Source: a virus (lineage: Duplodnaviria > Caudoviricetes). From it: a stretch of 64,000 nucleotides of DNA. This document shows, one piece after another, positions 147 to 15,498 of this stretch; the first letter of the stretch is position 1, and the number at the start of each line of letters is the position of its first letter. The DNA lies in the IMG/VR virus record IMGVR_UViG_3300025018_000137, positions 1-64,000 of that record; one strand, given 5' to 3'. Below the pieces are notes generated by a model. That model saw only the letters and a program-made list of their open reading frames with translations, searched no databases and was not told where the DNA came from. The position numbers and the translations under genes were made by a program.

Positions 147-164
147 TAGGGGTATCCCTATCTG
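143..164. other. 9-bp stem hairpin overlapping the terL stop codon
   Basis: CAGATAGGG-GTAT-CCCTATCTG. The TAG stop (158-160) lies in the stem. No U-tract follows. Confidence 0.6.
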
Positions 165-3085
165 CGCGGTCCGAGGTGTGCACGGTCAGAGGAGAACCTG
201 TCGTCTTGCTTGAGAATTCGGCCCCCCTCATCTTCGGTGTTCCAAGTCGCAGATCGATTCATCATCACAAAGAACGCGCCGGCGCAGGCGTCAGCGATAT
301 CCTTGCTGCCGGTGGGTAGGTGATCGACCTTCTCTAGCTTGGCATCCCATTCCAGCTCTCGAAGCTCAGTCGAAAGCTCGGGGTTATTCGGGAGAGCAAG
401 GCGCTCATCGTATAGTGCTTCTCTGAATGCCTTGTAGGCAGCCGAAGGGGCCTTGTCCACCGTTTGCTGAGTGGTCGGCATCCCCTGCTTTCTCCACTCC
501 TGCCTGCTCTCAAGCGAGTGCCATCCGTCGTAGCTGACACAACGGATCGGGTACCCAAGAACCTCCTTGAGCTTGCTGACGAATGCACGGACTTCCGCTA
601 GGTCTACCTCGGCGATGGCGCTAGGGCTCAGCGATACAGCCAGCTCTACTGTACCGCAGGGAAGCATCTCTATTCTGCCCCCCTTCCGTACTCTCTCCAT
701 CAGTCCGTCGAACCTGACCATTGCTATGCCGCATCGGTCCCCTGTGTGAGAAAGGTCGATGTGCACATATCGAGGGCGGGATGGGTTTTTACAGAAGTGC
801 CCGGGGACAAAGGTGGGCATCCCGTGTACCGCCAGATCGACGTTCATCTCTTCGACAATGTCGGGCAGGTCTACGAGCTTGCCCAGCTCTACTGCGGACT
901 CAATGGCAGAACGTCGGCCGATGAACGGACTCTGCGAACGAAGGGACCGACCGATCACGTCGCGTACCGCGCCTTCCGGGTCAGTGCTGAAGTCATCCCG
1001 GTACCTGCCCGGCACGTCGTAGATTTCACACTCTTTGGGTAGGTCTTCGCCCCGCTCGCGCAGCTCTACCGACTTGGCTCCTTCCGAGTAGACGCACACA
1101 TGGAAGTAGTCTTCGGGGTCGGCGTCCTCGGCAGGCTTTACCTCGTACTGCGCTCGGGCGTAGACATACACGTCCTTGATGTTGTGGTCCTTGATGTGCT
1201 GCCGTCGCACATCCGTGAACTCGCCCGGGTAGTTCGTAGACGATAGAGTGCAGATGACGCCCACATTCGGCCCATTCCTCGCGAACCGACCACTCTTCCG
1301 GCGTGTCGTCTTCGTGAAGATTTCAGTCGCTTGGTCAAACTTGGCAGAACGACCTGTCTTGGCTTGCGACCTCCTCGAATTAGCAATGACCTGCATAAAA
1401 TTGATTTCATCAATGATCGCCCCGAAAATTGCTTCACCCAAGATCGAGTCAACATCCGCACCGACCGGAGCAACACGAATGTTCTGCTCGTCGAAGCGCA
1501 TCTCCGCCTCGATGTACTTGTTCAGGCGCATGTGCGCGCGGAACCAAGGCATCTGTTCGAGGTACGTGCGCAGGGGCATGTACAGAACGTTCTTGGTTAC
1601 CTTCGGCTTAGCCGCGAAGATCGGGATGACCAACTGCGCAGCGGTGGGCAAGCCCCAATACGTCTGTGGCTTCCGCAAGCAACCCATCAGATGCAGGTGG
1701 TAGGCCGTGATGACCTTGGCTATTTCGCTCTTGCCAGTGTTGCCAGTGACAACAACTTTCCCGTTTCTCCGAGATACCCACATTCCCGTAGGAACCTTAA
1801 AGCAGTAGCAGAAGCCATCCTGCGACGGGACAGTACCTATGTTCTCTTTCTTAGAGCTGGCGAGCCTCCAAGGCTCGGACTTGACGACGTGCACCACATA
1901 GTCGGTCTTACCGTCTACTCGGTCAGAGGGGTTGATGGTGGCTCGGCGGCCAGTGGCGCAGAAGCAGTGCTGGATGAAATCAGCGCTGCCCTTGTCTCGG
2001 GTATAGAACTCGCCCCGCTTCTCCGTTCCGTCCCATTTTAGGCATTCGCTGGTCACCACCTGAAGTTGGCGCTGACTGGCCGCCCACCAGCCTTCGTAGT
2101 TCTTGTTTCGCTGTGGGGCAAGAAAAGCGACGTCAGAGTATCCGTCAGCGCGTTCATACTCGTTGTAGGGTATACCGCACTTGCTCAGGAGCATCCGAAG
2201 TCGGGCTTTCTTTCGGGCTTTCTTGAGATGAAACACGCAGTATTGAGGACGATGCCCTGCCCTCTTGTAGAAATGTCCATCGGCCATTACTGCCACCATG
2301 AGACGGATTTCGTGATCCGTCAGTGGTAGTCCTGCTCCGCCGCCAACATAGCTCCCTACAAACTCCCCGGATTTCCACCCGTGCTTGCTGGCGTTGTGCA
2401 GGACAACAATATCCTCGGCCGGACGTTCCATTAGTTCGCCAGTCTTGGCGGACCTATAGATCACTCGGTGCCCTGCGCTCAGCAACTGGTCAAACGTTCT
2501 AGTTTTGAACGAGAAGAATCGTTTGTACGGCAGCTTGACGTACTCTTCCGGGTCAACGAATTCCAGCGCCCCGTCCGCAGTGTACTGCCCTACTTTTTGC
2601 CCTGCCCATTCGCCTATAGGTACCCAACCCTCCGGGGTCAGAAACTCGGTGTCCTTATCGACGCAGCCTGTCGCCCCCATCGCCAAGAACTGAGTGTAGG
2701 CCCCGCCCGTCTTGCCTCGGAACCATCCGCTGCAGCACTCTATGATCGTGTTGCGTACCTCGGGCCACACTTCCAGATCGGTTCCGCCCATGAACTCGTC
2801 GGAGTCTAGGAAGGTCTCAATATCGACAGGTAACTGTCGTAGCTGGCCGATGAACGCGAGGTAGGACTTGTTCCCGTGCAGGGTGGCTTGGCGGATTGCG
2901 TAGATGTAATCGTCTACAAACGACAGTCTGCCGTGCTGTTGGCAGAACACCTCCGCCTGACGCTGGAACTCGGCCAGCCGTTCCTCGATCAGATCGGCCC
3001 GTTCCTGCGGGATGCCAGAGAGGGCATGCCTCGCCGGCCTGCGTCGGCGACGGACTGTGTTCGCGTAGGAGAAGGCTTCGTTCAC
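158..3085 (-). CDS. terL: Terminase large subunit, intein-containing (975-aa precursor, about 666 aa after splicing)
   Basis: Walker A GATG/TGKS (interrupted), Walker B AIIDEINF, RNase H-like nuclease motifs YVHIDLS..DRCG and SKDIADA. Directly downstream of an HTH small-subunit candidate. Confidence 0.93.
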   Translation of the reverse strand: MNEAFSYANTVRRRRRPARHALSGIPQERADLIEERLAEFQRQAEVFCQQHGRLSFVDDYIYAIRQATLHGNKSYLAFIGQLRQLPVDIETFLDSDEFMGGTDLEVWPEVRNTIIECCSGWFRGKTGGAYTQFLAMGATGCVDKDTEFLTPEGWVPIGEWAGQKVGQYTADGALEFVDPEEYVKLPYKRFFSFKTRTFDQLLSAGHRVIYRSAKTGELMERPAEDIVVLHNASKHGWKSGEFVGSYVGGGAGLPLTDHEIRLMVAVMADGHFYKRAGHRPQYCVFHLKKARKKARLRMLLSKCGIPYNEYERADGYSDVAFLAPQRNKNYEGWWAASQRQLQVVTSECLKWDGTEKRGEFYTRDKGSADFIQHCFCATGRRATINPSDRVDGKTDYVVHVVKSEPWRLASSKKENIGTVPSQDGFCYCFKVPTGMWVSRRNGKVVVTGNTGKSEIAKVITAYHLHLMGCLRKPQTYWGLPTAAQLVIPIFAAKPKVTKNVLYMPLRTYLEQMPWFRAHMRLNKYIEAEMRFDEQNIRVAPVGADVDSILGEAIFGAIIDEINFMQVIANSRRSQAKTGRSAKFDQATEIFTKTTRRKSGRFARNGPNVGVICTLSSTNYPGEFTDVRRQHIKDHNIKDVYVYARAQYEVKPAEDADPEDYFHVCVYSEGAKSVELRERGEDLPKECEIYDVPGRYRDDFSTDPEGAVRDVIGRSLRSQSPFIGRRSAIESAVELGKLVDLPDIVEEMNVDLAVHGMPTFVPGHFCKNPSRPRYVHIDLSHTGDRCGIAMVRFDGLMERVRKGGRIEMLPCGTVELAVSLSPSAIAEVDLAEVRAFVSKLKEVLGYPIRCVSYDGWHSLESRQEWRKQGMPTTQQTVDKAPSAAYKAFREALYDERLALPNNPELSTELRELEWDAKLEKVDHLPTGSKDIADACAGAFFVMMNRSATWNTEDEGGRILKQDDRFSSDRAHLGPRR
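1739..2665 (-). mobile_element. Intein (309 aa) with LAGLIDADG-like homing endonuclease, inserted in the TerL Walker A motif
   Basis: Starts CVDKDTEFLTP (Cys1 = residue 141) and ends GKVVVTGN, followed by Thr+1. Internal motifs LMVAVMADGHF and CLKWDGT. Excision restores GATGTGKS. Confidence 0.92.
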
Positions 3086-3861
3086 CCGAGCAACCTCATG
3101 CTGATCTGGTCTTCCTCTTCCATTTGCTCCACCGGAAGATCGTCTTCGATACCAGCAATGACGTTTTCCGCCAGACGTACCAGAGTTTCCAGTTGCGAGT
3201 TGCCGCCCTCTTCGCCCGCGCGGTAACGAATGACATCGAACACTCCCGCCGCTTCGAGGAACGCGGTCTGCTCCTTCTTCGCGTGGACACTCGTACGGAT
3301 GGCAGCCAGCTTCGCCGGGATCGGGGTCTTGTTGTGCGTGGCAATACGCAATGCGACGCCTGACACCTCGTCGTAGTAGCTCATCGTGGTGCCGATCAGC
3401 TCGTTTATGTTCAGGTTCGCCGCTTCGCGCCGGAGCTTTTCGTGAAGCTCTTTCCGGTCCCGCTGTACCTGACGAACACTGACGCCGAACTGCTCGGCAA
3501 TCTGGTCGAGCGGAACGTTGCGCTGAAGCAGTCGCGCCAGCAGCTTGAGCCTATACTCGCGGTAGTATTCGGGCGAGGTTTGTCGTACGTGATCCATCCG
3601 AGACGCCGGAGTGAAGTCATCGTCAGCGACGGCGGCTTGGTCAGCGTTCGCGGTCTGGGCAGCAGTAGACAGGTTGGTCCGAGCTGCCACGCGGTTTCTC
3701 GCCGCGTTACGCAAGCCTTCCACCATAGCCCGCGCCTCCTCTTCCGGACTGCTAGCAGAGCTGGCTTCCTCGATCTCCGAGACTACATCATCGACCGGGC
3801 CTTCATTCTCCGGTAGACCAGAGGAGCGGCGTCGACGACGACGGACGGTAACTACGGTCAT
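3082..3861 (-). CDS. Probable terminase small subunit (HTH DNA-binding protein)
   Basis: HTH-like VPLDQIAEQFGVSVRQVQRDRKEL. 4-bp overlap with the terL start. Confidence 0.7.
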   Translation of the reverse strand: MTVVTVRRRRRRSSGLPENEGPVDDVVSEIEEASSASSPEEEARAMVEGLRNAARNRVAARTNLSTAAQTANADQAAVADDDFTPASRMDHVRQTSPEYYREYRLKLLARLLQRNVPLDQIAEQFGVSVRQVQRDRKELHEKLRREAANLNINELIGTTMSYYDEVSGVALRIATHNKTPIPAKLAAIRTSVHAKKEQTAFLEAAGVFDVIRYRAGEEGGNSQLETLVRLAENVIAGIEDDLPVEQMEEEDQISMRLLG

Positions 3862-3868
3862 GGCTGCT

Positions 3869-4666
3869 TCACCGATTCTTCATTGCGGCAAACCCACGGA
3901 ACGGGCCGAACCGGAAGGTGTCGAACTTCCGATCGAACCTTCCACGTAGGGCTCCTTCTATCGAAGCGGCGCTCCGCTCGAACATTGAATTCTGGAGGGC
4001 GGCACTCTTGGCATCGATCTCTTCCTGAGTGTACCCGTTGGACGCCCGCCACTTGTAGTAGTTGCGGGAGATGGCGTTGGCGATTGAGCCCGGCTCTCTC
4101 CCCCAGAAACCGTAGCCGTGCTTCTCCGCGAACAGCAGCAAACCCCCCGGACGGCACAGGCCGATCAAGTTGCGTATCGCCGAGTCCAAGTTGGCTTGGG
4201 GCACGAACTGCAGAACGTAGTGGCAAGCCACCACATCGAATTGCCCGAGCGGGCGACACTCTTCGTTGACAGAAAGGTCGGCATCCTCTACGCGCAAGCC
4301 CGGGAACTCCGAGCGCAGATGGGCTGCCATGTGCGGGGACGACTCGATTGCGGTGCAAGATACGGCACGGGATAGCAGCTCCATGTCGTTCTCGTAGACA
4401 GTGCCGGGCCATGCGGCTTCGTGCATGCTTCGCAGGAACTGGCCCCGCGAGGCTCCGATATCCAACAGGGTAGGCTGGCGGTGCTCCGGCAGTCTGGAGG
4501 ACAGGAACGATACAGCGATCTCGGAATGCAGGCGGTGCATCTCGTGGTACAGGGGTATGCTACGCGTCGCCATGTCCGGGAAAATGCTGGACACTTCGGC
4601 GTCGAAGCTGAACACCTCGCCTTCGGGATAGTGCCTTGGGATGCCGCCTTCTACTTTAATCACCAT
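3869..4666 (-). CDS. cmoA: CmoA-like (carboxy-SAM synthase family) class I methyltransferase-fold protein
   Basis: FSFDAEVSSIFPDMATRSIPLY, LDIGASRG, HYVLQF, PGGLLLFAEK and ASNGYTQEEIDAKSAALQNSM align with the CmoA signature segments ([66 protein letters not shown]; reference recalled from memory). Confidence 0.85.
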   Translation of the reverse strand: MVIKVEGGIPRHYPEGEVFSFDAEVSSIFPDMATRSIPLYHEMHRLHSEIAVSFLSSRLPEHRQPTLLDIGASRGQFLRSMHEAAWPGTVYENDMELLSRAVSCTAIESSPHMAAHLRSEFPGLRVEDADLSVNEECRPLGQFDVVACHYVLQFVPQANLDSAIRNLIGLCRPGGLLLFAEKHGYGFWGREPGSIANAISRNYYKWRASNGYTQEEIDAKSAALQNSMFERSAASIEGALRGRFDRKFDTFRFGPFRGFAAMKNR

Positions 4667-4681: not shown

Positions 4682-4697
4682 GTGAAATCGTTTTCAA
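4682..4697. promoter_or_regulatory. Palindromic motif copy GTGAAATCGTTTTCAA
   Basis: Exact TGWAAWCGWTTWCA core, 16 bp upstream of the cmoA-like ATG. Confidence 0.75.
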
Positions 4698-4732: not shown

Positions 4733-5116
4733 CTAAGAGCCTCCCAGTCGATCTACCACAGCAATGGCAACCGCGCTGAGAGCAGTCACGATCGAGGTCC
4801 AGAGAGTCAGCCGACCCTTGGCACTCTGCGGTTCATGCTTCTCCACCCCCCTGAACCGGGCCTCGGTGTCGTCCATATGCTCTTTGTGTTTCTTCTTGAA
4901 CAGAGCGTAGTCTTCGATCATAGGGGTCCGTTCGGCGATCCGTTTTTCCATCTCTTCGACTCGGCGCTCTATCGATGACATACGCTCCGCTAAAATAGCC
5001 AGTTCTTTGGCGGTGGTGGTGGCAAGCTCGCGGAGGCTTTCCAGTACCTCTCGGGTCTTCTCTACGAACGGTAGTATCACGTTACGTATAGCAAAGCTGG
5101 CGGTTTCAGAGGACAT
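4733..5116 (-). CDS. Coiled-coil protein with a C-terminal transmembrane helix (holin-like architecture)
   Basis: Start revised to MSSETASF (5116). Heptad-rich middle and hydrophobic C-terminus LWTSIVTALSAVAIAVV. Confidence 0.6.
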   Translation of the reverse strand: MSSETASFAIRNVILPFVEKTREVLESLRELATTTAKELAILAERMSSIERRVEEMEKRIAERTPMIEDYALFKKKHKEHMDDTEARFRGVEKHEPQSAKGRLTLWTSIVTALSAVAIAVVDRLGGS

Positions 5117-5151
5117 CCCGCCCCCCTCTCTATTTCCGTCAGTCACTTCGA

Positions 5152-5667
5152 TTACTTCCCGGGTTGGCGGGGCAACACACCGTGAGTGACCATGACCATG
5201 CCCCATACTGCGATTTGTGGTTCACCGTGGGACATAAAGACTTGAGGCCACTTATGGACCCCCCAGATTTCGTACATCCCTGTAAGAGAATTCAACCCGC
5301 CTTCCGTGAAGAACTCCGCCTGACCAGTCTCCGCTACCTTCTTATCGTTGGCACGAAAACCATCAGCGGTAAGGCTCGGCCAGTGCTTGGCGTCGTTACA
5401 CCCTACGTAGCCCGCTCCGTACCTATCCCTGTAGCTTTTAGTGGAGAAGACCATCTTATACCCTAGTGATGGCACTTTGCACCATACTGGCAAAATGGAA
5501 TCAGCGAATAAAGAATCGGCGTGCCGAACAATCTCGATCAGCTCGCAAGGTATGTTCTCCACCCCATGACGTAGCAGGTCAAGCGTAGACTGTGAGGTAG
5601 TCTCCCAAGCAGCAAACTGCGCGTCCATTCTGGCAGTCTGCGTATGCGTGCGATGTAACATCGCCAA
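5152..5667 (-). CDS. Stand-alone PAS-fold protein
   Basis: LPVWCK..GYKMVFSTKSY..YVGCNDAKHWPSLTADGFRANDKKVAETGQAEFFTE..VHKWP..VWGMV follows the PAS_4 pattern (P.w.KD..G.y...N......G.td..lwp...a..f..nD..v...g.....eE....K.P....G). Confidence 0.65.
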   Translation of the reverse strand: MAMLHRTHTQTARMDAQFAAWETTSQSTLDLLRHGVENIPCELIEIVRHADSLFADSILPVWCKVPSLGYKMVFSTKSYRDRYGAGYVGCNDAKHWPSLTADGFRANDKKVAETGQAEFFTEGGLNSLTGMYEIWGVHKWPQVFMSHGEPQIAVWGMVMVTHGVLPRQPGK

Positions 5668-5672
5668 ATCCC

Positions 5673-6059
5673 CTATGCAGTTCTGGCTACTTCAAGTTCC
5701 AGCCGGGCCTCTGGCATAGTCTCGTGGGAAAGTATCTTCGGCGGATCGCCAGAGCTGTCGTAGTGCTGGACTCGGAAATCGTAGTACCCCGGCCCGGGTA
5801 GGGTACTCAGTCCGGCAAGATGGAGCACCAACTTCCCTTCGTTCAGCGAGTCGCTGTAGTCAAAGCAACCCGCCTCAGCCGGAACATCAGAGTCGATCGT
5901 AATCAGTCCCGTTGCCGTAACGATAGTGGCCACCACCCGCGCCGTAGCCGTGAAGTCTTCCGGCGTAAATTCCCCGGTCGTACGGCTCCTACCCCCGAAA
6001 TAGAGAGAGATCGGATTCGAGGCACCGGGGTATACCGTGACGCGGAGTTTTCTGGCCAT
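5673..6059 (-). CDS. Hypothetical protein, probably virion-associated (beta-rich)
   Basis: Clean 128-aa ORF, tightly packed in the 11.8-5.7 kb structural-like cluster. Confidence 0.6.
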   Translation of the reverse strand: MARKLRVTVYPGASNPISLYFGGRSRTTGEFTPEDFTATARVVATIVTATGLITIDSDVPAEAGCFDYSDSLNEGKLVLHLAGLSTLPGPGYYDFRVQHYDSSGDPPKILSHETMPEARLELEVARTA

Positions 6060-6062
6060 CTA

Positions 6063-6278
6063 TCAGACTCCCGTCTGCCCCATGATCTGGGCTACCTTCT
6101 CCGGGGACAGGACTACGGCACCGGGACTACGCTGCCCGGTCGGGTACACTCCGTCCGCATCCTGCGCCCACCCCCTGTCGCAGAAGTATTGCCCGATCTC
6201 GTCGGCCACCACTCGTTGCTCGGTGGCGACATAGCTGACGCCATTGTGCTTGGTATCGTCGATCATCAGAATCTTCAT
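6063..6278 (-). CDS. Small hypothetical virion-associated protein
   Basis: 71-aa ORF with good packing. GQYFCDRGWA resembles small phage structural proteins. Confidence 0.6.
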   Translation of the reverse strand: MKILMIDDTKHNGVSYVATEQRVVADEIGQYFCDRGWAQDADGVYPTGQRSPGAVVLSPEKVAQIMGQTGV

Positions 6279-6311
6279 TAGAGTCTCCGTGTTTCAGATG
6301 CGCACTGCTTA

Positions 6312-6671
6312 TTAGGCCGCGTCTAGGATTTCGTGGTCGAAAGCGTTGACGGTGACGGTGCCGCCTGACGTAAGGGCTTGCGAGGCCACCGTGGTTACCA
6401 CAAGAAGGTTCGTGCCGTCGATGATTGCCACATGATCTGCGATACCGGAAGAAGCGATCGCGATGTCGACTTGCTGGGCAATGGTATCCTTGCGCCCGGA
6501 CGTGTCACCGTTCGCCCGAGTGTAGTCGACGCCGGTGATCGCGACAGTAGCGAGGGCAGCGGCGAGAGCCCCTGCTCGGTCGGCCGGCTGTCCCGCGCAG
6601 ACAATTAGGCTGGTGCCATGGGCTGCGTCGAGCGCAGCGTTCATCACCAGATCGTTTACAAACTTGGCCAT
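6312..6671 (-). CDS. Virion structural protein (119 aa)
   Basis: MAKFVNDLVMNAALD..NGDTSGRK..ADHVAI..VTVNAFD resembles conserved small siphovirus structural proteins (recall, not searched). Confidence 0.65.
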   Translation of the reverse strand: MAKFVNDLVMNAALDAAHGTSLIVCAGQPADRAGALAAALATVAITGVDYTRANGDTSGRKDTIAQQVDIAIASSGIADHVAIIDGTNLLVVTTVASQALTSGGTVTVNAFDHEILDAA

Positions 6672-6711
6672 TTCATTCCCTCAGATTGTTCGTAGATGAA
6701 GCGGATACCGG

Positions 6712-9273
6712 CTATGGGATCGGGACCGTGCTGACCACGCCCACCAATGATGACGTGCTGACCATGTACACCTTGTCCCCCAACTGTACCACAACGATCA
6801 GGTCCGGATCGATAGTCAGCCGCCCTATAGTTACCGCCGAGAGCAAATGAGAGTGTAGCAATCCCACAGGGGACATAGAGCTTGCTGTGGCCAACGCAGC
6901 TACGTCGAGTATCTGTGCGTGCAGAACCCCTTCTGGGGACAAGGCAGACGCGACCTCGATCGCAGCTCCGTCGAGCAGGTGGGGGTGCGTTATATCTACG
7001 GGAGAGATAGGGATCGACTGAGACAAGCCCGCTTGTGTAATCGTCTGCAAAATGGAAACGTCTGCCGGCGAAAGCACGTTCGCCTGCTGCAACGATCCGC
7101 CACCAACTACCTGTAGATGCAAGAGCCCGGCGGGCGTCAAGAAGCCAGACACGACGGCGCTGGTAGTCGCCAAATCTTGGGCCTGCACCAGAGCATTCGG
7201 CGTCAGCGAATAGCTGGCGGAAAAGAGCGGGCTATCCACCGTCTGGCTCTGTGACAAAGATTCCGGGGATACTACTGCCGCGACCAGTATCGCCGTGATA
7301 TCCAGAAGCATTTGCTGGCTGATCGAATTCGGGCTGATCGACCCGTTCGACGCCAAACCAGACGTGTCTAAAGACTGTCCTTGCGCAATTCCAACGGGGG
7401 ATATCGCCGCCGCCTCGCTGACCGCAGTAGAGGCAAGCGTGGACACCTGTAGGACTTGGTTCGGCGTTACGACACTAGCCTGCACCAATATTGTGCCGTC
7501 AAGGAGATGCGAAGTAGAGACAGATACCGGAGAAAGTTGCGCGCGCTCGGAGATCGTGGTGATCGCCAATAGATGCCCGTGCTCCAGAGGGGCAGGAGAT
7601 ACCGCTGCAGCCTCAGAAATCGACGTATTACCCAGCGCGTGGCCTTGATCGATAGCGTCCGGGGATACGGGGACAGCTCCCGCCAAAGACCCGGCATCGA
7701 GCAGTTGTATATGGGAAATGCCATCCGGGGACATTACGTGGCTTACGATCAGAAGGCCGGCATCCAACGTAGCTGCGTGCTGTAACTGCGCGGGAGACAG
7801 GCTGGTTCCCGGGATCGTGCCTCCCAGTAGGTCGTAGGCGTCCGGGGAGAATGCATCGGCATCGAAGGCGTCGTTGTCGAAGCCGCCCGCTCCGGACAGC
7901 GGAAGCCCACCGTAGAGAGGAACGGTGAACTCGCCCGTTTTGCCGGCAGCGAAACTCCAATGATCGACCTTAAACGAATGGACGCCAACGCCACCACCCA
8001 CCGAACGGAAAGTGTAATCGGCTGCAATCTCGACCGGCCACGTATCTAAGTTATCGTCTGGGGTAGTCACCTGTTCGTAGACGAACGTCTCTCGTGTAGC
8101 GGCCGCTCCGGCTACAAAGTCGTGGAGACTATCCCCCACCGCCGTTTCTCTGGGGGCGGCGTTATTCCCGAATACTGCCCACCCAGACGGAGGCAGATAG
8201 GAGTGAAATTCAGTGGCCTCGTCCGCAGATGCAGTGTCGGTCAAAAACAGCCTTGGGCGGTACAGGGCGGCTCCGTTGCCCGCCCCGTCGTACCAAGGTA
8301 GATTGCCTCCGTCCCAAGTGAATTGCAGAATACTTTCGTCTTGAAATGTAACAGTCTGGGGCTGTGCGTATTCAGGGCGATCAGTACCCCCGGATAGGTC
8401 TCTGAACTTTCCGACCACATCAGTGACCCGATCTAGGTTCAGACCCTCAACCGTCACTACGTCTCCGTCCCGGACTTCCGTCAGATCTTCGTAATACACA
8501 GGGAAGAAAGACGGGGCGGCACCTTCGTTGACCCCAACCATGATATCCCAAGGGGCCGCATACAAAGCTGCCCACTCGCCGGAGCTGAGTGCTTTATCCA
8601 AGATAGCGGCGTAGTAGAAAACCGGCGTGTTTCCCCAGTCCCTCATTGTCTTAAGTTGAGCGAACAGTACGGAACCGGTGTTGCCGTCCAGAGCGGGGAC
8701 GAATGCTCCGCTGTCCCCAGCCTCGTGCGCTCCGTTGAAGAAAAAGTTGGTGGACCACACTCCTGCGGTGATGGTTACGTCGACGCCTATCATAGCGGGC
8801 ATTCCGTCAGCCAGAACCCCAGAAGACGTAGCAATAGAAGGGCCAGCGGAGCTGCCACCCCCCTCCAGCATCAAGCCGATCTGCGTACTGCTCACCGGGA
8901 GTTTTTTCAGGGCGAATCCGGGGCCGCCGAGATTGAAAGGAGTCTCCACCAAAGAGAATAGGTAATTTACCCCGCCGATTAGGTCCAGATCGCCGTCGAG
9001 GTACAGCACGATAGAGAACTGCTCAGTCCCTCCCAGCGCCGCTACGCCAAAGACGCCGTATTCATTGACGTTGCCCACAACAAAGAACGGCGCAAGCTCG
9101 GTATAGGCTCCAATCCCGTCGTTGCCTAAACGCGAATTCACGCCGCTACTTGCGCTGGCGGCGACCACAGAGCGGAGTGTCTTGGAGTTTTCCAGCACAA
9201 CCAGTTCAAGGATGTTCGAGTTCAGGGCGTGACCGGAATTCAGTCCTATCTCCCCTCTCGGCTTTACGGCCAC
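6712..9273 (-). CDS. Fibre/adhesin-like virion protein: N-terminal LamG/ConA-like domain plus a 22-aa repeat shaft
   Basis: Start revised to GTG at 9273 (M-A-V-K-P-R-G-E-I parallels the paralog at 9900-10748). The C-terminal third is made of 15 x 22-aa repeats. Confidence 0.7.
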   Translation of the reverse strand: MAVKPRGEIGLNSGHALNSNILELVVLENSKTLRSVVAASASSGVNSRLGNDGIGAYTELAPFFVVGNVNEYGVFGVAALGGTEQFSIVLYLDGDLDLIGGVNYLFSLVETPFNLGGPGFALKKLPVSSTQIGLMLEGGGSSAGPSIATSSGVLADGMPAMIGVDVTITAGVWSTNFFFNGAHEAGDSGAFVPALDGNTGSVLFAQLKTMRDWGNTPVFYYAAILDKALSSGEWAALYAAPWDIMVGVNEGAAPSFFPVYYEDLTEVRDGDVVTVEGLNLDRVTDVVGKFRDLSGGTDRPEYAQPQTVTFQDESILQFTWDGGNLPWYDGAGNGAALYRPRLFLTDTASADEATEFHSYLPPSGWAVFGNNAAPRETAVGDSLHDFVAGAAATRETFVYEQVTTPDDNLDTWPVEIAADYTFRSVGGGVGVHSFKVDHWSFAAGKTGEFTVPLYGGLPLSGAGGFDNDAFDADAFSPDAYDLLGGTIPGTSLSPAQLQHAATLDAGLLIVSHVMSPDGISHIQLLDAGSLAGAVPVSPDAIDQGHALGNTSISEAAAVSPAPLEHGHLLAITTISERAQLSPVSVSTSHLLDGTILVQASVVTPNQVLQVSTLASTAVSEAAAISPVGIAQGQSLDTSGLASNGSISPNSISQQMLLDITAILVAAVVSPESLSQSQTVDSPLFSASYSLTPNALVQAQDLATTSAVVSGFLTPAGLLHLQVVGGGSLQQANVLSPADVSILQTITQAGLSQSIPISPVDITHPHLLDGAAIEVASALSPEGVLHAQILDVAALATASSMSPVGLLHSHLLSAVTIGRLTIDPDLIVVVQLGDKVYMVSTSSLVGVVSTVPIP
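6823..7800 (-). repeat. Protein-level tandem repeat: 14 full and 1 partial 22-aa units (h-S/T-P-x-x-h-x-Q/H-x-x-x-L...)
   Basis: LSPAQLQHAATLDAGLLIVSHV / MSPDGISHIQLLDAGSLAGAVP / VSPDAIDQGHALGNTSISEAAA etc. 978 bp = 326 aa = 14x22+18. Confidence 0.85.
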
Positions 9274-9521
9274 AGCGGGTTCACCGACATGGTTTCCGCC
9301 CACGCATCAACGGACGCCGCAACGTACGGTACCGTGCCCCCGTCCTCGATATCGCCCGCCGCAAACACTTCCGTAAGTGACAGAAACCCTGTATTTCCGC
9401 TAGCCGACAAATCGAACGGTGTCGCCGCTCCGGGCAGGTTGCTAGCTTCGCACAGCACATTATCGGGCATCCGAAACGTCATATCACCCTCTCCACTTGT
9501 TGGCCAGTATCCCTGCGCCAA
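9264..9521 (-). CDS. Hypothetical protein (85 aa)
   Basis: Fills the gap between neighbours with short overlaps. Confidence 0.5.
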   Translation of the reverse strand: MAQGYWPTSGEGDMTFRMPDNVLCEASNLPGAATPFDLSASGNTGFLSLTEVFAAGDIEDGGTVPYVAASVDAWAETMSVNPLWP

Positions 9522-9903
9522 TCACCGGTACATCGTTCATTTGCCGCACGTTGACTTCCGCGTTTAGCGACAGCTCAATGTTGACCTGCTCCATATCCGT
9601 GACGCCTTTCAGGATAATCACGCACTTGCGGGCTCCTGCCGCAATCGTGGCGTCCGGAAGCCCCAACTGCACGATGCCGGGCATGTTGGTATCGTCCACC
9701 AGTATCAGCCCTCCTGTCGCCCACGTACCTAGAGTCATGGTAGCGAGTGTGATCGCAACCGCGCCGGTGTCGGGGCGGTAGTAGTACGCGGTCAGGCCGG
9801 CGGAGTTGTAGAGCAGGCCGGTGAACGGGAGCCCGTCAGATACCTTGCGCACGAAGAACTCTACGAGCAAGGACGTAGTGCCCGGGAAAATAGACTCTTT
9901 CAC
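9484..9903 (-). CDS. Hypothetical virion-associated protein (139 aa)
   Basis: Start revised to GTG at 9903, a GTGA overlap with the upstream stop. Beta-rich sequence. Confidence 0.6.
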   Translation of the reverse strand: MKESIFPGTTSLLVEFFVRKVSDGLPFTGLLYNSAGLTAYYYRPDTGAVAITLATMTLGTWATGGLILVDDTNMPGIVQLGLPDATIAAGARKCVIILKGVTDMEQVNIELSLNAEVNVRQMNDVPVIGAGILANKWRG

Positions 9904-10748
9904 TGGAAACCTCCGGACATTTTTTGCATTCCTCCCAACATAGGGACTTGGGTAGCCGGTACGAATCCGCCGCCGCCCGCCGGCGCGACCAAATCCCACG
10001 GGTCTGCATTGATCGCGTCGAGCTGGGCGTCCGACAGGTACGTGTCGAAAATAACTGTGTAGTACGTAACCGGGGTGATTACAAAATCTACGTTCCCGCG
10101 CATACGCAGGACATCAGATGACCCGTCGCTTTTGTTCACGTCATTGGTGACGTGCAGCGTGGTGGTGTTCAGCACCATCGCCTGCCCGTCTATGTAGCCG
10201 TCCCACGCTTGCGACCCGCTCGTAATTACGCAGCGCATCGCTAGTATTGCAGCTTGATCCGACGCAATATACCAATTCGGGGCCATAGAGGATGGCCCGT
10301 TTCCGCTCCACCCGCCACGCGACCTTAGACCAACCGCCGCGCCGCCGCCAAAGTTCATCCCAATATTGTGTCCATAAACCCCGGCTGCTGTGTCGCCATT
10401 TGCCATATCCGCAGTCAGGCTGCCTATGGTTGCAAGCGCTTGTATCGACGCGCCAGGGCTATTAGGGATATCCGAGTACACCACCCACGTATGCGCGGAT
10501 GTACCTGCAAATGATGCGGCGTCGAATAACGCGAGGTCCGCTCCCATATCGACTACGGCAGTAACAGTACCTCCGCCAACACCTAGATCACCGCTGGTAC
10601 CCGTGACCGGAGTAATGCTTGTTCCGGTCGCCCCGGAAACCAGTTCACGCACGGTTCCGTCATCTTCGACCACAAGCAACGCGACCACGTTCGCATACAG
10701 CGCGTGCCCCGTGTTGAGCTGTATCTGCCCCGACGGTTTTGTCGCCAC
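9900..10748 (-). CDS. LamG/concanavalin A-like domain protein, paralog of the N-terminus of the 6712-9273 protein
   Basis: MATKPSGQIQLNTGHALYANVVALLVVE vs AVKPRGEIGLNSGHALNSNILELVVLE; YYTVIFDTYLSDAQLDAINADPWDLV vs YYAAILDKALSSGEWAALYAAPWDIM. Confidence 0.65.
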   Translation of the reverse strand: MATKPSGQIQLNTGHALYANVVALLVVEDDGTVRELVSGATGTSITPVTGTSGDLGVGGGTVTAVVDMGADLALFDAASFAGTSAHTWVVYSDIPNSPGASIQALATIGSLTADMANGDTAAGVYGHNIGMNFGGGAAVGLRSRGGWSGNGPSSMAPNWYIASDQAAILAMRCVITSGSQAWDGYIDGQAMVLNTTTLHVTNDVNKSDGSSDVLRMRGNVDFVITPVTYYTVIFDTYLSDAQLDAINADPWDLVAPAGGGGFVPATQVPMLGGMQKMSGGFQ

Positions 10749-10758
10749 GATCTACGCC

Positions 10759-11193
10759 TTACACCCAGTGGGAGATAAGGGCAGCGAGGAGGGCGGCAAT
10801 TTCCGCCTGTTCCCCCGCAGAGTAGGGGGCCAGTACAACTCCAGCAGTCGATACCGTATACGTGCCGGTATTGTGAGAATTCAACCACGCTTTAACGGCA
10901 GGAACCGCCGTATCACGAATGACCACGTACTCGCCCAACAAAGCCATGAAATCTGCGATGCCGAACAATCGCTCAATTGTCGGTCCCAGCTCGGACGGCC
11001 CAATACCCGCTGACTGCAACGTGGCGACAGTATCCTCGAGCCGCTTGACCGCCATAAGATGCGGGTATACCCACCCGTTGTTCGACGCAAGTTGTTGCGC
11101 CCCAATTTCGGCGGTAGAACGAAGGTCTTCCAGACGCTGATACCACGTCTGTACCAACGCATCAAAGGTTTTCGCTTCTCTCGGGATTGGCAT
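10759..11193 (-). CDS. Hypothetical protein (144 aa, helical)
   Basis: Clean ORF with 1-bp overlap to the upstream gene. Confidence 0.6.
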   Translation of the reverse strand: MPIPREAKTFDALVQTWYQRLEDLRSTAEIGAQQLASNNGWVYPHLMAVKRLEDTVATLQSAGIGPSELGPTIERLFGIADFMALLGEYVVIRDTAVPAVKAWLNSHNTGTYTVSTAGVVLAPYSAGEQAEIAALLAALISHWV

Positions 11194-11480
11194 TACTTTC
11201 TATCTCCCAAAATGTCTCTTTCTACTACGTTCAGGCGGCGATAAGCATCGGCCGCCCCACTGCAATGTTTCTTGTCGATCTTGTCCAGCAACCAGCACAG
11301 CCAATCGCACGGCACACACACGTCCCGGTAGCGCCCCGCCCGCGAACTGATCGTTTCGTATGGGCTGCCGAGCATGAGCGCGTTGGCGAACAGATCGAGC
11401 GCCAACAAGAGGTTCATAGTCCATAAGCTAAGCGCAGCGCAGACCTTGCACTTTTTGCCTTTGAGAGTTGCGGGTTTCAT
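11193..11480 (-). CDS. Conserved phage hypothetical protein typical of tail-fibre regions
   Basis: LLLALDLFANALMLGSPYETISSRAGR...LCWLLDKIDKKHC is a recurring motif in small tail-associated phage proteins (recall). Confidence 0.65.
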   Translation of the reverse strand: MKPATLKGKKCKVCAALSLWTMNLLLALDLFANALMLGSPYETISSRAGRYRDVCVPCDWLCWLLDKIDKKHCSGAADAYRRLNVVERDILGDRK

Positions 11481-11493
11481 CGTGACCTCATGG

Positions 11494-11823
11494 CTACATC
11501 GACGCTCCGGTGGCCGGATCGAGGACTTCGCCCATGTCCTCCCCCGTCAAACCAGAATCTAGGTACACCTTGAATCGTGTTTGACGTACAGAACCGTCTT
11601 GGTTCCTGATCGGGATATACCCGAACGCCACGTAGCGATCATTCTCAATTCTTTCCCACCCGGTCATGGTGAACCGTACTTGCGTAGCTGCGGGCAGGAC
11701 GATCGTATCTGCGGGCTCGATGAATGCCTGCGACCGGGGCAGCCATTTGGCTACTCGGGTGGCCACTTGTTCGACGAGGAAGGTGTTGAACCAGCCCGCT
11801 AGTCTGTCATTCCAAGTGGCCAC
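11494..11823 (-). CDS. Hypothetical protein (109 aa)
   Basis: GTG start with an AGGAG SD, downstream of the promoter at 11852-11881. Confidence 0.55.
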   Translation of the reverse strand: MATWNDRLAGWFNTFLVEQVATRVAKWLPRSQAFIEPADTIVLPAATQVRFTMTGWERIENDRYVAFGYIPIRNQDGSVRQTRFKVYLDSGLTGEDMGEVLDPATGASM

Positions 11824-11890: not shown

Positions 11891-11906
11891 GTGAAATCGT
11901 TTTCAC
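11891..11906. promoter_or_regulatory. Palindromic motif copy GTGAAATCGTTTTCAC
   Basis: Exact core. Overlaps the stop codon of the ParB-MTase gene. Confidence 0.75.
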
Positions 11907-13405
11907 TTTCTGGACAGGGTAATCCCTAGTCGGTGTGAAAACGATTGCAAGGCTTTGTCGCCGAGCCCCATCGATTCCCCGTCCGACAGGCAAAGTTCCT
12001 CGAACTCGAAGAGAAGAGCGGCGGACATCACCTTCGCGTTCTTCATCTTCGGAGCGGTTGCCTTCCAGTAGAAGACGTTCCCGCCGGGCCAACACTCGAT
12101 GTTGTTCCAGAAGTGGCCAGCGATGGCTTTGAACTCTTCTTGCGTATGGAACTTCTGAATCTTGGGATTGCTGAGTGCGTCCCCCAGACGTACGCCCGGC
12201 TCCGAATCGAACACGAAGTACCCTGCATTCCTGATCCCGGAATACTCGTAGTTGTAGTCAGAGATGTCGCGGCACGTACCGTAGACTGCCGTCTTGATTC
12301 CGCACAGCGCGTGCACGATCGCGAGAACGCATTGCCTGTCACGAGGGAACGGGATGGAATTCATCACCGATGCCAAGAAGATCGAACTGAATGGTCGGCC
12401 TTCCGCCACCTCGTCCAAGAACTCCGACGCCTTCTCCCTACTGTAGCCCGGGTCAGGTACGTGCGCTTCAGTATCCGGGTTGATCCGAAACGGCTCGAAG
12501 TCTACGCACTCGACCCCCTTGCTGCGAAGGTACGGTCCGACCTTGCAGAGACCCGCCCCGAAGTCGCAAACATAGTCGCCGTGCATCGTCCTGAACTTGC
12601 GCCAGTAGTTGGTGCTATACGAGTCCGCGTCACGGAGCGTCTTGCATCCGTTGGCCCAGAACCGATAGGACTTCGGGAGTCTGCCTCGGTTGTTCTGCGG
12701 GCGTCGGTACGCTGAATACCGCAGGAGCTGAGCGAACTCGCCATCGACAGCGTAGTCCATGCTGAGGTAGTTGAGCATGTTCGACGCGAAGTCACCGATG
12801 TCCTCCGGGATTTCGATGGTTGGCCATTCTGTAATGCCCTCGTGGCGGGCCTCGAATAGCCGGAATACCCCGTTGATTACCCGCCCCGTAGGCGTGCGTA
12901 CTATGGGGATTTTTACCCCCTTCCTGCGCATGCTGGACGCGATGAGTAGGGACTTGCGATTGTACTTGTCGGCCATGTCCTTGCCGACACCGACGATCGA
13001 CCGATCCTCGCATCCATACGCAAACCATTCCTCCCCGTCGAAGTCAGGCATCCCTTCGGCTTGACGCATCAGGCTGGTGATGTCGATCTTGTCGGTAGAG
13101 TTGGAGCCGGTATCGAATGCAGTGAAGTCGTTCGTTGCACGATTGAACTGGACGTTGATGCCTTTCTGATTCTTCTCCGAAATATCAACGTAGATGACAG
13201 GGGCGGTGCGAAACCCTAGCTCCCTCGCCCGCGCGTGTCGTTGGTGCCCAGACAAAACCATACCATCTTGGTTGCAGAAGATGGGCTGCACGAAACCCAT
13301 CTTCGCCAGCGAGATACGCAACAGATTGCTGCGCATCTCGTCCGCCTTCCTTGGGTTGCTTTCGTCCGGAAAGATGTCATCCAGAGCTACCCGCTCAATC
13401 ATCAT
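11903..13405 (-). CDS. Tandem ParB-like domains fused to a SAM-dependent (amino-type) methyltransferase domain
   Basis: ParB motif 1 NPRK..VQPIFCN..VLSGHQR; ParB motif 2 IPIVRTPTGRVINGVFR; MTase motif I CDFGAG; motif IV-like IFLASVMNSIPF. Confidence 0.78.
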   Translation of the reverse strand: MMIERVALDDIFPDESNPRKADEMRSNLLRISLAKMGFVQPIFCNQDGMVLSGHQRHARARELGFRTAPVIYVDISEKNQKGINVQFNRATNDFTAFDTGSNSTDKIDITSLMRQAEGMPDFDGEEWFAYGCEDRSIVGVGKDMADKYNRKSLLIASSMRRKGVKIPIVRTPTGRVINGVFRLFEARHEGITEWPTIEIPEDIGDFASNMLNYLSMDYAVDGEFAQLLRYSAYRRPQNNRGRLPKSYRFWANGCKTLRDADSYSTNYWRKFRTMHGDYVCDFGAGLCKVGPYLRSKGVECVDFEPFRINPDTEAHVPDPGYSREKASEFLDEVAEGRPFSSIFLASVMNSIPFPRDRQCVLAIVHALCGIKTAVYGTCRDISDYNYEYSGIRNAGYFVFDSEPGVRLGDALSNPKIQKFHTQEEFKAIAGHFWNNIECWPGGNVFYWKATAPKMKNAKVMSAALLFEFEELCLSDGESMGLGDKALQSFSHRLGITLSRK

Positions 13406-13407
13406 GC

Positions 13408-14124
13408 TCAGGTTCTCCGTGTTCTTCTGGATCGCCGGCCCTCTTCGATGGCCAATATGCCGAGACGATCCTTCAGCAGCTCGATGATCGCCCCCTCTTC
13501 GAAGTCGCCGTCCGTCTTCACGCTGTTGGTCCAGAGACGATATACATCGGTGGGTATCCGGAAGATGAACTCCCCGAGCACGAAGCGAACGGTCTCGGGG
13601 CCGCGACCTACTACTCGCGACGGCGTGTTCTCCTGCGCCGTAAGATCACGGGATACCTCCCCGCTAAGACAGTCGTCGGCGACGGTTTGGCCTAGACAGT
13701 CGATCTCTTCCTGTGCAAAGCCGAAGTTCGTGAAATCGATTCCAGAACCGCTGAGCGCGTGAATCTCCTGCGCGAGTAGATCGAGATTCCACGTCGCCTG
13801 TTCCGCCACCTTGTTGTCGATGATCCGGAACTGGCGGATCGCCTCGGGGGATAGATGCTGCGCGAATACAGCGGGCACTTCATCCATGCCGAGAGTCTTC
13901 GCCCCCTCGACCCGAGTATGCCCCGCCACCAATACGTTGTTTCCGTCTAGGACAACCGGGACCAGAAAGCCGAACTCTTGAATGCTGTTGGCTACGGAAG
14001 CCACCGCCTCGGCATTGTCCCTCGGGTTGAACTCGTACGGCACAATGTCGTCGATACTGACGTACCGAATTTGGATTCTCGGCGGATCGTTCCGCCGGCT
14101 ACGTCTGCGGGCAACACCATTCAT
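13408..14124 (-). CDS. ParB/Srx N-terminal domain protein
   Basis: Start revised to ATG 14124 (GGAG SD). IDDIVPYEFNPRDN..FGFLVPVVLD..LVAGHTR..IIDNK. Confidence 0.85.
   Translation of the reverse strand: MNGVARRRSRRNDPPRIQIRYVSIDDIVPYEFNPRDNAEAVASVANSIQEFGFLVPVVLDGNNVLVAGHTRVEGAKTLGMDEVPAVFAQHLSPEAIRQFRIIDNKVAEQATWNLDLLAQEIHALSGSGIDFTNFGFAQEEIDCLGQTVADDCLSGEVSRDLTAQENTPSRVVGRGPETVRFVLGEFIFRIPTDVYRLWTNSVKTDGDFEEGAIIELLKDRLGILAIEEGRRSRRTRRT
13730..13745. promoter_or_regulatory. Palindromic motif, one-mismatch copy GTGAAATCGATTCCAG
   Basis: Inside the ParB coding sequence. Confidence 0.45.
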
Positions 14125-14134
14125 AGTCATCTCC

Positions 14135-14169
14135 AAAAAAAAAGGGGCAGAGGTTTTACCCCCTGCCCC
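14135..14169 (-). terminator. Rho-independent terminator
   Basis: Minus strand GGGGCAGGGGT-AAA-ACCTCTGCCCC followed by T9, after the 433-aa gene. Confidence 0.9.
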
Positions 14170-14196: not shown

Positions 14197-15498
14197 TTAC
14201 CGCGCCGTACGCTTGGCCTTCGGCTTCGCCGCAGGCTTCGCCTTCGCCGCAGGCTTGGCCTTCGCCGCAGGCTTCGGCGCGGCAACCTTGGTTGCGGCCT
14301 TGGCGGCTGCCTTCACGGCCGGCTTGGACGCCGGAGCGGCCTTGCCCGCAATCGCTTCGGCGCTGGCCTTGGCGGCTTCCCGCTTCAGACGGTTCTGCAG
14401 CCTGGTGACCGACGACACGTCGAGATTTTCCTCGGCCCATGCCGTAAGTACCTGCTCCAACAAGTCGCCGTCGTTCTCGGTGCCGAGGTGTTCCCGCGCC
14501 AGATCGAGGATGGCCCGAACGTGATGGCCTGCGGCCTCGACCAGAGAGAACCGGAAGTTGACTCTCCGAACCACGGTCTTCTCGGTAGCGCCGGAGGTCA
14601 GCGTCTGCCTGCTTTCGCTCACAGTGTCCTTCAGTTCCGAGACCGTGCTGACGGTTGCCGCCGCTATCAGGTCTGCGTGGTTCGTCTCATCGAGAACCGG
14701 GACCACGAGCGCCGCCTTGCTCCAGCCCATCGCCGCAAGATGCTCTTCGCCGTAGCCGTAGCGGCAGAACGTCGTGTAGATCGCGACGAGGTGCATGGCC
14801 ACCCGGTAGTCGAGGTGGAGGACATCCGCGCACCAACGGCGGAATCCGCCGATGCCCGCGTACTCTTCTTCCTCGGCGTACGCCTTGCTGAGACGGATGT
14901 GATAGAGCACCCCGCCGAGCTTCCACTGAGCGCTGGTGGTTTCTTCGGCCAGTTCGAGGGCCTTCTCGGTCAGGTCGCTGCCGTCGCCGATCAGTTCGAG
15001 GATTTCCTCGGACTCTTCACCTTCACCAAGAACGATCATGTTCTTGAGTTCGGGGTCGACTTCTTCGACGCGGGTTGAGGACTTCGAGGCAGCAACCGCC
15101 TTGCCCTTGGGAGCGGCCTTGGCCTTGGCCTTCGGAGCAGGGGCTTCCTGTTCCTCTTCCTCTTCGGCTTCCTCTTCCTCTTCGGCTTCTTCAGCTTCCT
15201 CTTCTTCCTCTTCTTCAGCTTCCTCTTCGGCAGGCTCGATCTCGTCCGAGATCACCGCGACGCCGACAGTCTCGGGGTTCTTCGCTGAGGGCTTCTTCTT
15301 GGCGTTGAAGTCCGGGTTGGCAACCGCGAGCACGATCGTCTCGTCATCGCCTTCTTCTTCCGGGGCCAGAACGCTGACGACTGTGTACTGCTCGCCGACT
15401 TCCAGCAACTCGCCGTTCTCGGGCTGCTCCGCATCCTCGTCGAATCCGAGGAACGTCACAACGCTGCCTTCTTCGTAGCTGATCGTATCTTCGCTCAT
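14197..15498 (-). CDS. Acidic-N / histone-H1-like Lys-Ala-Pro C-terminal protein (putative nucleoid-associated protein)
   Basis: Poly-Glu tract EEEAEEEEEEEAEE and C-terminal PAAKAKPAAKAKPAAKPKAKRTAR (18-bp DNA repeats near 14218-14280). Confidence 0.75.
   Translation of the reverse strand: MSEDTISYEEGSVVTFLGFDEDAEQPENGELLEVGEQYTVVSVLAPEEEGDDETIVLAVANPDFNAKKKPSAKNPETVGVAVISDEIEPAEEEAEEEEEEEAEEAEEEEEAEEEEEQEAPAPKAKAKAAPKGKAVAASKSSTRVEEVDPELKNMIVLGEGEESEEILELIGDGSDLTEKALELAEETTSAQWKLGGVLYHIRLSKAYAEEEEYAGIGGFRRWCADVLHLDYRVAMHLVAIYTTFCRYGYGEEHLAAMGWSKAALVVPVLDETNHADLIAAATVSTVSELKDTVSESRQTLTSGATEKTVVRRVNFRFSLVEAAGHHVRAILDLAREHLGTENDGDLLEQVLTAWAEENLDVSSVTRLQNRLKREAAKASAEAIAGKAAPASKPAVKAAAKAATKVAAPKPAAKAKPAAKAKPAAKPKAKRTAR

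Follow-up and report, generated by a model that had tools for sequence, protein, structure and literature searches.

ParB, a ParB-ParB-methyltransferase fusion and a CmoA-family enzyme: a conserved phage module and candidate DNA-modification system

The natural carboxymethylation of DNA, first reported in 2025, depends on a single type of enzyme, CmoX. It is known from the CmoA-CmoX-CmoY system of Synechococcus phage S-B43, whose products are 5-carboxymethylcytosine and its glycine amide; many CmoX neighbourhoods contain ParB-domain genes, and as the survey that found them began from CmoX, a CmoA without CmoX lay outside its scope (PMC12783734). Here we describe a phage locus with a CmoA relative of this second kind. 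It lies in a 64,000-nucleotide stretch of DNA from a virus of the Caudoviricetes (positions 1 to 64,000 of IMG/VR record IMGVR_UViG_3300025018_000137; hereafter the window), the record itself being 75 kb long and rated 76% complete. The locus encodes a small stand-alone ParB-like protein, a fusion of two ParB-like domains to a methyltransferase domain, and a protein of the CmoA family, three genes that travel together through phages and prophages as a conserved module and that may serve to modify phage DNA. As in S-B43, a phage CmoA-family enzyme accompanies a transferase of the S-adenosylmethionine (SAM) fold, with ParB neighbours and in a phage DNA-modification context. Unlike S-B43, neither the phage's own record nor five relatives with complete genomes of 93-104 kb, all but one of them with terminal repeats, encode CmoX (C5 fold, SPPC, R350); the candidate transferase is instead an unrelated Methyltransf_23-type domain joined to two ParB domains, no ligase of the Asn-synthase type was found in 24 related records, and the CmoA relative in the window lacks Arg199.

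Four further systems invite comparison. ParB-dependent thymine dioxygenases of phages, represented by 5mYOX176 and ParB176, are activated on double-stranded DNA by a small ParB with nucleotide-binding and C-terminal domains and no obvious DNA-binding domain, and terminase, HAD and kinase genes are among their frequent neighbours (PMC13229309); our stand-alone ParB is likewise small, similarly built and encoded beside a candidate DNA-modifying enzyme, the difference being that here the enzyme itself carries two ParB domains. A catalogue of ParB-CTPase-fold proteins includes fusions to N6_N4_Mtase and Methyltransf_23 domains, the latter enriched in phages and prophages and of the same architecture class as ours (PF02195 with PF13489), and reports that ParB fusions to bacterial SAM methyltransferases bound ATP (PMC12704722). 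The fusion is listed there without a pathway, and neither a tandem ParB duplication nor obligate CmoA-family and free-ParB partners were found in a term search of that paper's text. In the bacterial pathway to tRNA cmo5U, a CmoA-type enzyme is again paired with a transferase of the class I methyltransferase fold, CmoB (PMC3663124), whereas the transferase described here is not CmoB-like by sequence, is fused to ParB, sits at the junction of phage replication and packaging genes, and has a partner in which the Arg199 site varies. Canonical ParABS and KorB systems share with our locus the N-terminal ParB fold with its GxxR motif and a palindrome dispersed through the genome; they differ from it in that we find no ParA, no recognisable helix-turn-helix (HTH), a score far under the cut-off of the partition family TIGR00180, and palindromes that lie at translation starts. 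A full-text literature search combining CmoA, phage, ParB and methyltransferase returned only PMC12783734.

If the module does modify DNA, cofactor-dependent DNA modification would have a second route, and the ParB-Methyltransf_23 fusions, catalogued but so far unexplained, would gain a definite function. The family is large and old, spanning lytic phages of about 100 kb and prophages of several phyla, and its presence in cultured phages of Pseudomonas (SM1, PaMx31, BHU-15) and Aeromonas (HJ05) makes it directly testable, the copy in the window being useful mainly as a contrast case.

The module in the window and in related loci

Four features define the locus, the whole neighbourhood being coded on the minus strand:

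13408-14124, minus strand: stand-alone ParB-like protein, 238 amino acids (PF02195, PHROGs and AF2 model)
11903-13405, minus strand: ParB-ParB-methyltransferase fusion, 500 amino acids (phrog_5475 at 1e-114 over its full length; function unknown in the PHROGs annotation)
4733-11823, minus strand: inserted block, about 7 kb of unrelated genes splitting the module (no counterpart at the junction in the relatives compared, by tblastn synteny)
3869-4666, minus strand: CmoA-family protein, 265 amino acids, the conserved third member of the module (TIGR00740, PDB CmoA and profile matches)

The parB gene and the fusion gene follow one another with a gap of 2 bp, as the initial annotation had it: the TGA of parB occupies 13408-13410 and the ATG of the fusion lies at 13405. 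Full-length homologues of the fusion are encoded by Pseudomonas phages SM1, PaMx31 and BHU-15 (51% identity) and by Aeromonas phage HJ05 (33%); at the nucleotide level, megablast of the operon region against phage records gave no match. To trace synteny, the window genes were compared by tblastn with SM1, HJ05 and some 80 loci of viruses. In SM1 (gp051-055) and HJ05 (genes 1-5) a ParB gene, the fusion, a class I methyltransferase annotated as 'tRNA methyltransferase', a gene for a small protein and one for a large protein stand in a row, and all five have counterparts in the window, the last three at 3869-4666, 3082-3861 and 158-3085.

The gene neighbourhoods were then surveyed in 80 IMG/VR loci, gathered by a related-locus search and tblastn, to which 19 loci from bacterial metagenome-assembled genomes (MAGs) were added, some of them on chromosomal contigs of 0.57-1.76 Mb. 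Both genes could be scored in 87 loci, and in these the ParB and fusion genes lie beside a gene of the CmoA family, which bears out the earlier proposal that the ParB operon belongs with the distant CmoA-like gene. The trio nearly always lies just upstream of the terminase genes terS and terL, in two arrangements. In the first group, phages of about 100 kb whose fusions are 49-63% identical to that of the window, the order is recA, resolvase, exonuclease, a RuvC-like gene, a homologue of the 433-residue protein encoded upstream of parB, ParB, fusion, CmoA-like gene, HTH gene and terL. The second group (33-35% identity, many members classed as provirus) reads ParB, fusion, a gene for a HAD-like protein of 160 residues, CmoA-like gene, terS (phrog_57), terL (phrog_15) and portal. 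In four MAG loci of the Verrucomicrobiota, Anaerolineae and Victivallales (L095-L098) genes have changed places and strands without parting ParB, fusion and CmoA-like gene from one another, three of the four loci retaining the HAD-like gene as well. It is this persistence of the trio through rearrangement that chiefly argues for its genes working together.

Some of these loci carry companions of their own. The HAD-like protein lies between the fusion and CmoA-like genes in all loci of the second group (for example L063:11515-11997) and is absent from the lineage of the window; its motif I reads D-L-N-x-T in place of DxDxT, and polynucleotide kinase is weakly matched in its phosphatase part (phrog_415). 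A canonical ParB, with ParB_N and HTH_ParB domains, adjoins the rearranged module of an Anaerolinea MAG (L098:2588-3550, minus strand).

The junction between fusion and CmoA-like gene, at which the window carries its inserted block with a promoter-like site of its own (11881-11852), is occupied in relatives by other cargo, namely ThyX (L036:11932-12579, L011:2800-3579) or a GGACT-like gene (L097:9449-9880), and by no ligases; from this variety the junction behaves as an insertion hot spot. The copy in the window is a derived example of the module, split by an insertion and with a partner that lacks the carboxylate-binding Arg.

The three proteins

The stand-alone ParB exceeds the PF02195 cut-off (33-35.5 bits against 26.3) and matches two PHROGs families, the ParB-like partition proteins of phrog_620 at 8e-48 and, at 5.5e-38, phrog_498, whose members are phage DNA methylases fused to ParB and are matched over their first 180 residues. 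Its AF2 model (pLDDT 82) contains a ParB/Srx N-terminal domain (about 13798-14073) that matches CTP-binding PadC (6ryk, VIA Z 13.7) and KorB-CTP (8qa8, 12.7); three helices follow it, then an acidic linker that is disordered, and last a small C-terminal domain, which is conserved and ends in RLGI. The P-motif reads AGHTR, with G70, H71 and R73 invariant in 22 sequences. An RLGI ending is common to the C-termini of both proteins, a likeness that proved not to be significant (hhalign E 0.08). Arg-rich tails are present at both ends of the ParB of this phage (13408-13450 and 14080-14124), the C-terminal one missing in all aligned relatives. It scores 24-28 bits against TIGR00180, the family of canonical partition ParBs, whose cut-off is 58.45, and has no PF17762 match, its helices 114-160 resembling HTH folds at Z of about 4, which is noise level. 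No Pfam HTH was matched, and none was recognisable, in either this protein or the fusion, and the two are the only genes with ParB_N in the 75-kb record.

An exhaustive search for the fusion (E<=1e-30) found at least 164 clusters at 50% identity, most of about 500 residues and matched over nearly the full length. Its AF2 model (pLDDT 83), together with profile comparisons, resolves three domains:

13121-13405, minus strand: fusion domain 1, residues 1-95, ParB/Srx nucleotide-binding fold (structure and profile matches)
12761-13048, minus strand: fusion domain 2, residues about 120-215, degenerate ParB-like core (profile-profile comparison only)
12041-12736, minus strand: class I SAM-dependent methyltransferase domain, Methyltransf_23-like, residues 224-455 (fold and motif evidence)

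Domain 1 matches sulfiredoxin (6ky4, VIA Z 10.7) and KorB-CTP (8qa8, 10.3); its PF02195 score of 20.6-22.2 bits is under the cut-off, a profile of the 59-sequence fusion alignment matches Noc, Spo0J and ParB at 1e-6, and hhalign aligns the domain to the stand-alone ParB with 99% probability (E 2.5e-18). Domain 2 aligns with domain 1 (96.6%, E 5e-10), its NGVFR opposite SGHQR, and with the stand-alone ParB (95.9%, E 5e-9). It retains N178, G179 and R182 and has lost the NPR box. The two ParB-like domains noticed at the outset are therefore upheld, GHQR and GVFR being their respective GxxR P-motifs, and the arginine of the Box II/P-motif, on which the predicted binding of nucleoside triphosphate (NTP) depends, is present in the stand-alone ParB and in both ParB domains of the fusion.

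Among 87 fusion homologues, down to about 31% identity, 50 alignment columns are invariant. These include NPR, SGHQR (R56) and NR-TND in domain 1 and NGxxR (R182) in domain 2, an Arg-rich segment ahead of the methyltransferase domain (R229, R234, R235), and, within that domain, F282, G283, G285, E304, P305, N349, S350, P352, F353, D356 and R357. Motif I is D281-F-G-x-G285, D281 being invariant in the 59-sequence alignment. Purifying selection is thus strong at the motifs for nucleotide binding in the ParB domains and at those for SAM binding in the methyltransferase domain.

On sequence and model, the fold, motif I and the acidic residue after strand 2 together place the third domain among class I SAM methyltransferases. 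Its nearest structures score between VIA Z 12.9 and 10 among those listed, led by 7bgg (12.9), 3sm3 (12.6), METTL6 (12.5) and, lower down, Trm9 (11.3); Foldseek ranks ToxA, O-methyltransferases and PhzM highest and puts CmoA (4iwn) in 31st place. PF13489 is precomputed on some homologues of the fusion, and the nearest Atlas clusters are Methyltransf_23. The label of an amino-methyltransferase, given when the locus was first annotated, does not hold: the segment after strand 4 reads N349-S-(I/V)-P-F and not (D/N/S)PP(Y/F/W), no Pfam family of DNA methyltransferases is matched, and DNA amino-methyltransferases are absent from the top 50 Foldseek and VIA matches, families beyond those 50 being possible. 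As the domain is of the Methyltransf_23 small-molecule/RNA type and not an amino-methyltransferase, the chemistry then proposed, transfer to N6 of adenine or N4 of cytosine, loses its support.

The third protein belongs to the CmoA family, structures of CmoA being what it matches best in the PDB. A profile of 23 partners matches CmoA (1im8/4gek) at 1e-56 over its full length, the next family following at 1e-20, and CmoA is the best NCBIfam match of every partner scored, at 54-168 bits: 154-168 in the clade typified by L063, 116 in a second clade, 100 in a member of the first group, 65 in the window and 54 in a fourth clade, all under 193. In E. coli CmoA, Arg199 forms a salt bridge to the carboxylate of the cofactor and is the distinguishing residue of the family (PMC3663124). 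At the corresponding site the 87 partners have Arg in 18, Thr in 33, Glu in 24, Ser in seven (the window among them), Ala in four and Asn in one, whereas the Lys before it is the same in all 87, and the LQF motif is invariant too. Of the cultured phages, SM1 and PaMx31 have Thr at this site and HJ05 has Asn. The residue at the Arg199 site is fixed within clades, as Arg, Glu, Thr/Ser/Asn or Ala, and the fusion protein is 50-77% identical across the clades of the second group; change in the partner, by divergence or by exchange, therefore outpaces change in the transferase.

Other enzymes that might act on DNA were sought by profile. In the phage's own 75-kb record there is no match to C5, N6/N4 or D12 methyltransferases or ThyA (PF00145, PF01555, PF02086, PF00303), nor to ThyX, and the five complete relatives have none to PF00145 or PF01555; the TET/JBP profile (PF12851) also found nothing, but failed equally in control genomes, so that this search is uninformative. 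We are left with a CmoA relative that has no CmoX partner, and with ParB proteins that have no conventional DNA enzyme other than the fusion. The absence of ParA, remarked on from the start, is confirmed in so far as PF01656 is unmatched in the 75-kb record, which at 76% completeness makes the absence less than absolute.

Expression signals and the dispersed palindrome

The start codon of parB (ATG at 14124) has GGAG 6 nt ahead of it, and a little further upstream lies a terminator-like element:

14135-14169, minus strand: intrinsic-terminator-like hairpin and T-run between the gene for the 433-residue protein and parB (10-pair stem, eight pairs G-C; T9)

The hairpin proper spans 14144-14169, and the T-run extends into the ribosome-binding site of parB. 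No promoter-like site is seen between hairpin and start codon, the nearest strong one (TTGACA-16-TACAAT, 15592-15565) lying ahead of the upstream gene, so that read-through is the simplest route to expression of parB and the fusion. The initial annotation, which had the operon fed through a terminator, is borne out by this arrangement. We would accordingly picture parB and the fusion as expressed by read-through from the gene of the 433-residue protein, and the CmoA-like gene as transcribed with terS and terL. The 433-residue protein itself (14197-15498; phrog_17202) contains a poly-Glu tract and Lys/Ala/Pro repeats; it is encoded directly upstream of ParB in all loci of the first group and is absent from the second.

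A 16-bp palindrome, GTGAAAnCGnTTTCAC, recurs through the window, with 19 matches at up to three mismatches where 0.24 are expected:

11891-11906, no strand assigned: palindrome copy with one mismatch, overlapping the stop codon of the fusion and immediately ahead of the promoter-like site facing the inserted block (11881-11852)
Starts at 4682, 11891, 15617, 23909, 30813, 35150, 42167, 47745, 52833, 53952, 57896 and 60752: the 12 best copies, 16 bp each

Its hexamers, GTGAAA and TTTCAC, are those of the parS half-site, in everted order. Copies had been reported over the end of the operon and inside parB; the former stands as described, and the latter (13730-13745) is weaker, with two mismatches and a broken arm, and falls in a protein-encoding stretch. 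The best copies at gene starts lie 0-25 nt upstream, beside the Shine-Dalgarno sequence, in front of many minus-strand genes. Seven of the 12 are 0-15 nt upstream of a start codon and directly 5' of the Shine-Dalgarno sequence; those at 23909, 30813, 35150 and 42167, and that at 4682 before the CmoA-like gene, exemplify placement at translation starts, and those at 11891 and 15617 lie just upstream of sigma-70-like promoters. Some relatives in the first group carry TTGAAATCGATTTCAA at similar places, as do L022 and L026, where it immediately precedes the fusion gene, and the loci of the second group have no palindrome. These placements suggest a lineage-specific expression signal, either an operator or an element of the mRNA, and there is no observation that links it to the ParB proteins. 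ParB loading at the palindromes, a central part of the earlier hypothesis, is rejected as unsupported because the copies sit at translation starts; neither ParB, moreover, has a recognisable HTH.

Candidate function, alternatives and the adjoining terminase genes

How might the three proteins act together? In the reading we favour, whose chances of being right we put at about even on the strength of sequence and analogy, the module acts on phage DNA that has already been replicated and modifies it at about the stage of packaging. The fusion would be the transferase, in the place that CmoX or CmoB holds for CmoA, and the CmoA relative would turn SAM into the donor for it: carboxy-SAM where Arg199 is retained, and in this phage, with Ser at the site, perhaps plain SAM or another S-substituted analogue. 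The ParB domains would take up a nucleoside triphosphate and either keep the enzyme on double-stranded DNA or activate it there, the free ParB serving as partner or helper, a role inferred by analogy with the ParB-dependent thymine dioxygenases and KorB. Of the modification role as first proposed, the linkage of the trio and its precedents (PMC12783734, PMC13229309) speak in favour, while the type of methyltransferase, the use of carboxy-SAM in this phage and the loading at palindromes are mistaken or without support. We would go further only speculatively, and with a small chance of being right, to a family of enzymes that transfer alkyl groups to DNA with diversified chemistry, in which each clade, its partner differing at the one residue that holds the carboxylate of the cofactor, makes its own S-substituted SAM analogue and leaves its own DNA mark, and in which the tandem ParBs form an intramolecular NTP-gated clamp in place of a target-recognition domain.

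A number of observations weigh against a DNA-modifying module. The CmoA relative in the window reaches 65 bits against the TIGR00740 equivalog cut-off of 193.3, and in its alignment with PDB CmoA 4gek (3e-9) KR is matched to KS and N132 to H, so that both Arg199 and Asn132 lack equivalents (Ser and His). Because of the residue at the Arg199 site, carboxy-SAM synthesis, which had been assumed for this phage, is doubtful here, whereas it is credible for the partners of the Arg clade, found across several phyla. No column of the fusion tracks the Arg or non-Arg state of the partner across the 87 loci, and the sequences therefore show no pocket specific for the carboxylate. The fold neighbours of the methyltransferase domain are mostly small-molecule N- and O-methyltransferases, and they include the tRNA and RNA enzymes METTL6, Trm9, a cmo5U methyltransferase, Hen1 and cap methyltransferases; the fusion, for its part, has no evident target-recognition domain. 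A CmoY-like ligase of the Asn-synthase type is without a PF00733 match in the 24 related viral records, in which AMP-forming ligases were not searched for. Finally, the module may adjoin the terminase genes through inheritance, or because such insertions share a site, and not for functional reasons.

The module may instead act on RNA, on a nucleotide or on a small molecule, the fusion being a CmoB-like tRNA transferase or modifying a nucleotide bound by the ParB/Srx domains, with the HAD-like protein of the prophage clade trimming a phosphate. The native pathway of CmoA is indeed that of tRNA cmo5U (PMC3663124, PMC12783734), the fusion has the RNA and small-molecule enzymes just named as fold neighbours, ParB/Srx folds also occur as kinases (SerK, sulfiredoxin), and a HAD-like gene lies within the module in the second group. 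Yet the nucleic-acid-modifying partners of ParB cited here act on DNA (PMC12704722, PMC13229309), what the stand-alone ParB most resembles is the N-terminal part of DNA methylases from phages (phrog_498), and HAD domains occur in DNA hypermodification clusters as well (PMC13229309), and we regard action on such substrates as unlikely. Alternatively, the fusion could be an ordinary SAM-dependent DNA methyltransferase and the CmoA-like protein a separate agent, whether consuming SAM to blunt host defences that depend on it or serving as a second methyltransferase, with no carboxy-SAM made here. The substitutions in the window partner fit this, as do the 69 of 87 partners without Arg at the site, the lack of covariation between partner type and fusion, the physical splitting of the module in this phage and the suggestion already made that phage CmoA may deplete SAM (PMC12783734). 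A separate role sits poorly, however, with a CmoA-family gene that stays beside the fusion through rearrangements and across phyla, which points to a shared pathway, and with the invariant Lys and LQF, which imply that the partner is still selected as a CmoA-type enzyme; we consider this arrangement rather unlikely.

The place of the module in the genome and the palindromes have their own readings. That the ParBs are packaging accessories, marking or holding the concatemer for terminase with methylation secondary, would explain why the module lies directly upstream of terS and terL in two lineages whose terminases belong to different PHROG families and do not match by tblastn in either direction (window terL against second-group loci at E<=1e-5, and second-group terL against the window). 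Against it, L095, L096 and L098 keep the trio with a terminase that is inverted or located elsewhere, the SAM motifs needed for catalysis do not vary, and proximity to terminase genes is common for DNA-modification clusters, including 19% of 5mYOX contigs (PMC13229309); a packaging accessory seems to us improbable. Most improbable of all is that the ParBs load at the palindromes and spread, or regulate transcription there as KorB does, partition of the plasmid type being a variant of the same idea. The palindrome is strongly over-represented and has the hexamers of the parS half-site, copies flank the operon, and dispersed operators are where KorB, itself a ParB, acts (cited in PMC13229309). 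But seven of the 12 best copies are within 15 nt upstream of a start codon, next to the Shine-Dalgarno sequence, neither ParB has a Pfam HTH (resemblance to HTH folds stopping at Z of about 4), no ParA was found, and the second group has the module without the palindrome. The lack of an HTH, and of ParA in the 75-kb record, is also the reason for which a partition function is rejected.

Downstream of the CmoA-like gene, two genes complete the correspondence with SM1 and HJ05:

3082-3861, minus strand: HTH protein, 259 amino acids, occupying the place of a small terminase subunit (HTH Pfam matches at residues 104-145, all under the cut-off)
158-3085, minus strand: large terminase-like protein, 975 amino acids, with a PhoH-like/ATPase insertion (phrog_9 at 1e-8, phrog_17415 at 1.6e-7, phrog_32482 at 2.7e-44)

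The HTH protein is kept between the CmoA-like gene and terL throughout the first group, the same slot being filled in the second by the terS of phrog_57. The terminase-like protein, at 975 residues against about 640 in SM1 and HJ05, has some 300 additional residues in its interior, and it is residues 134-471 that match the PhoH-like family phrog_32482.

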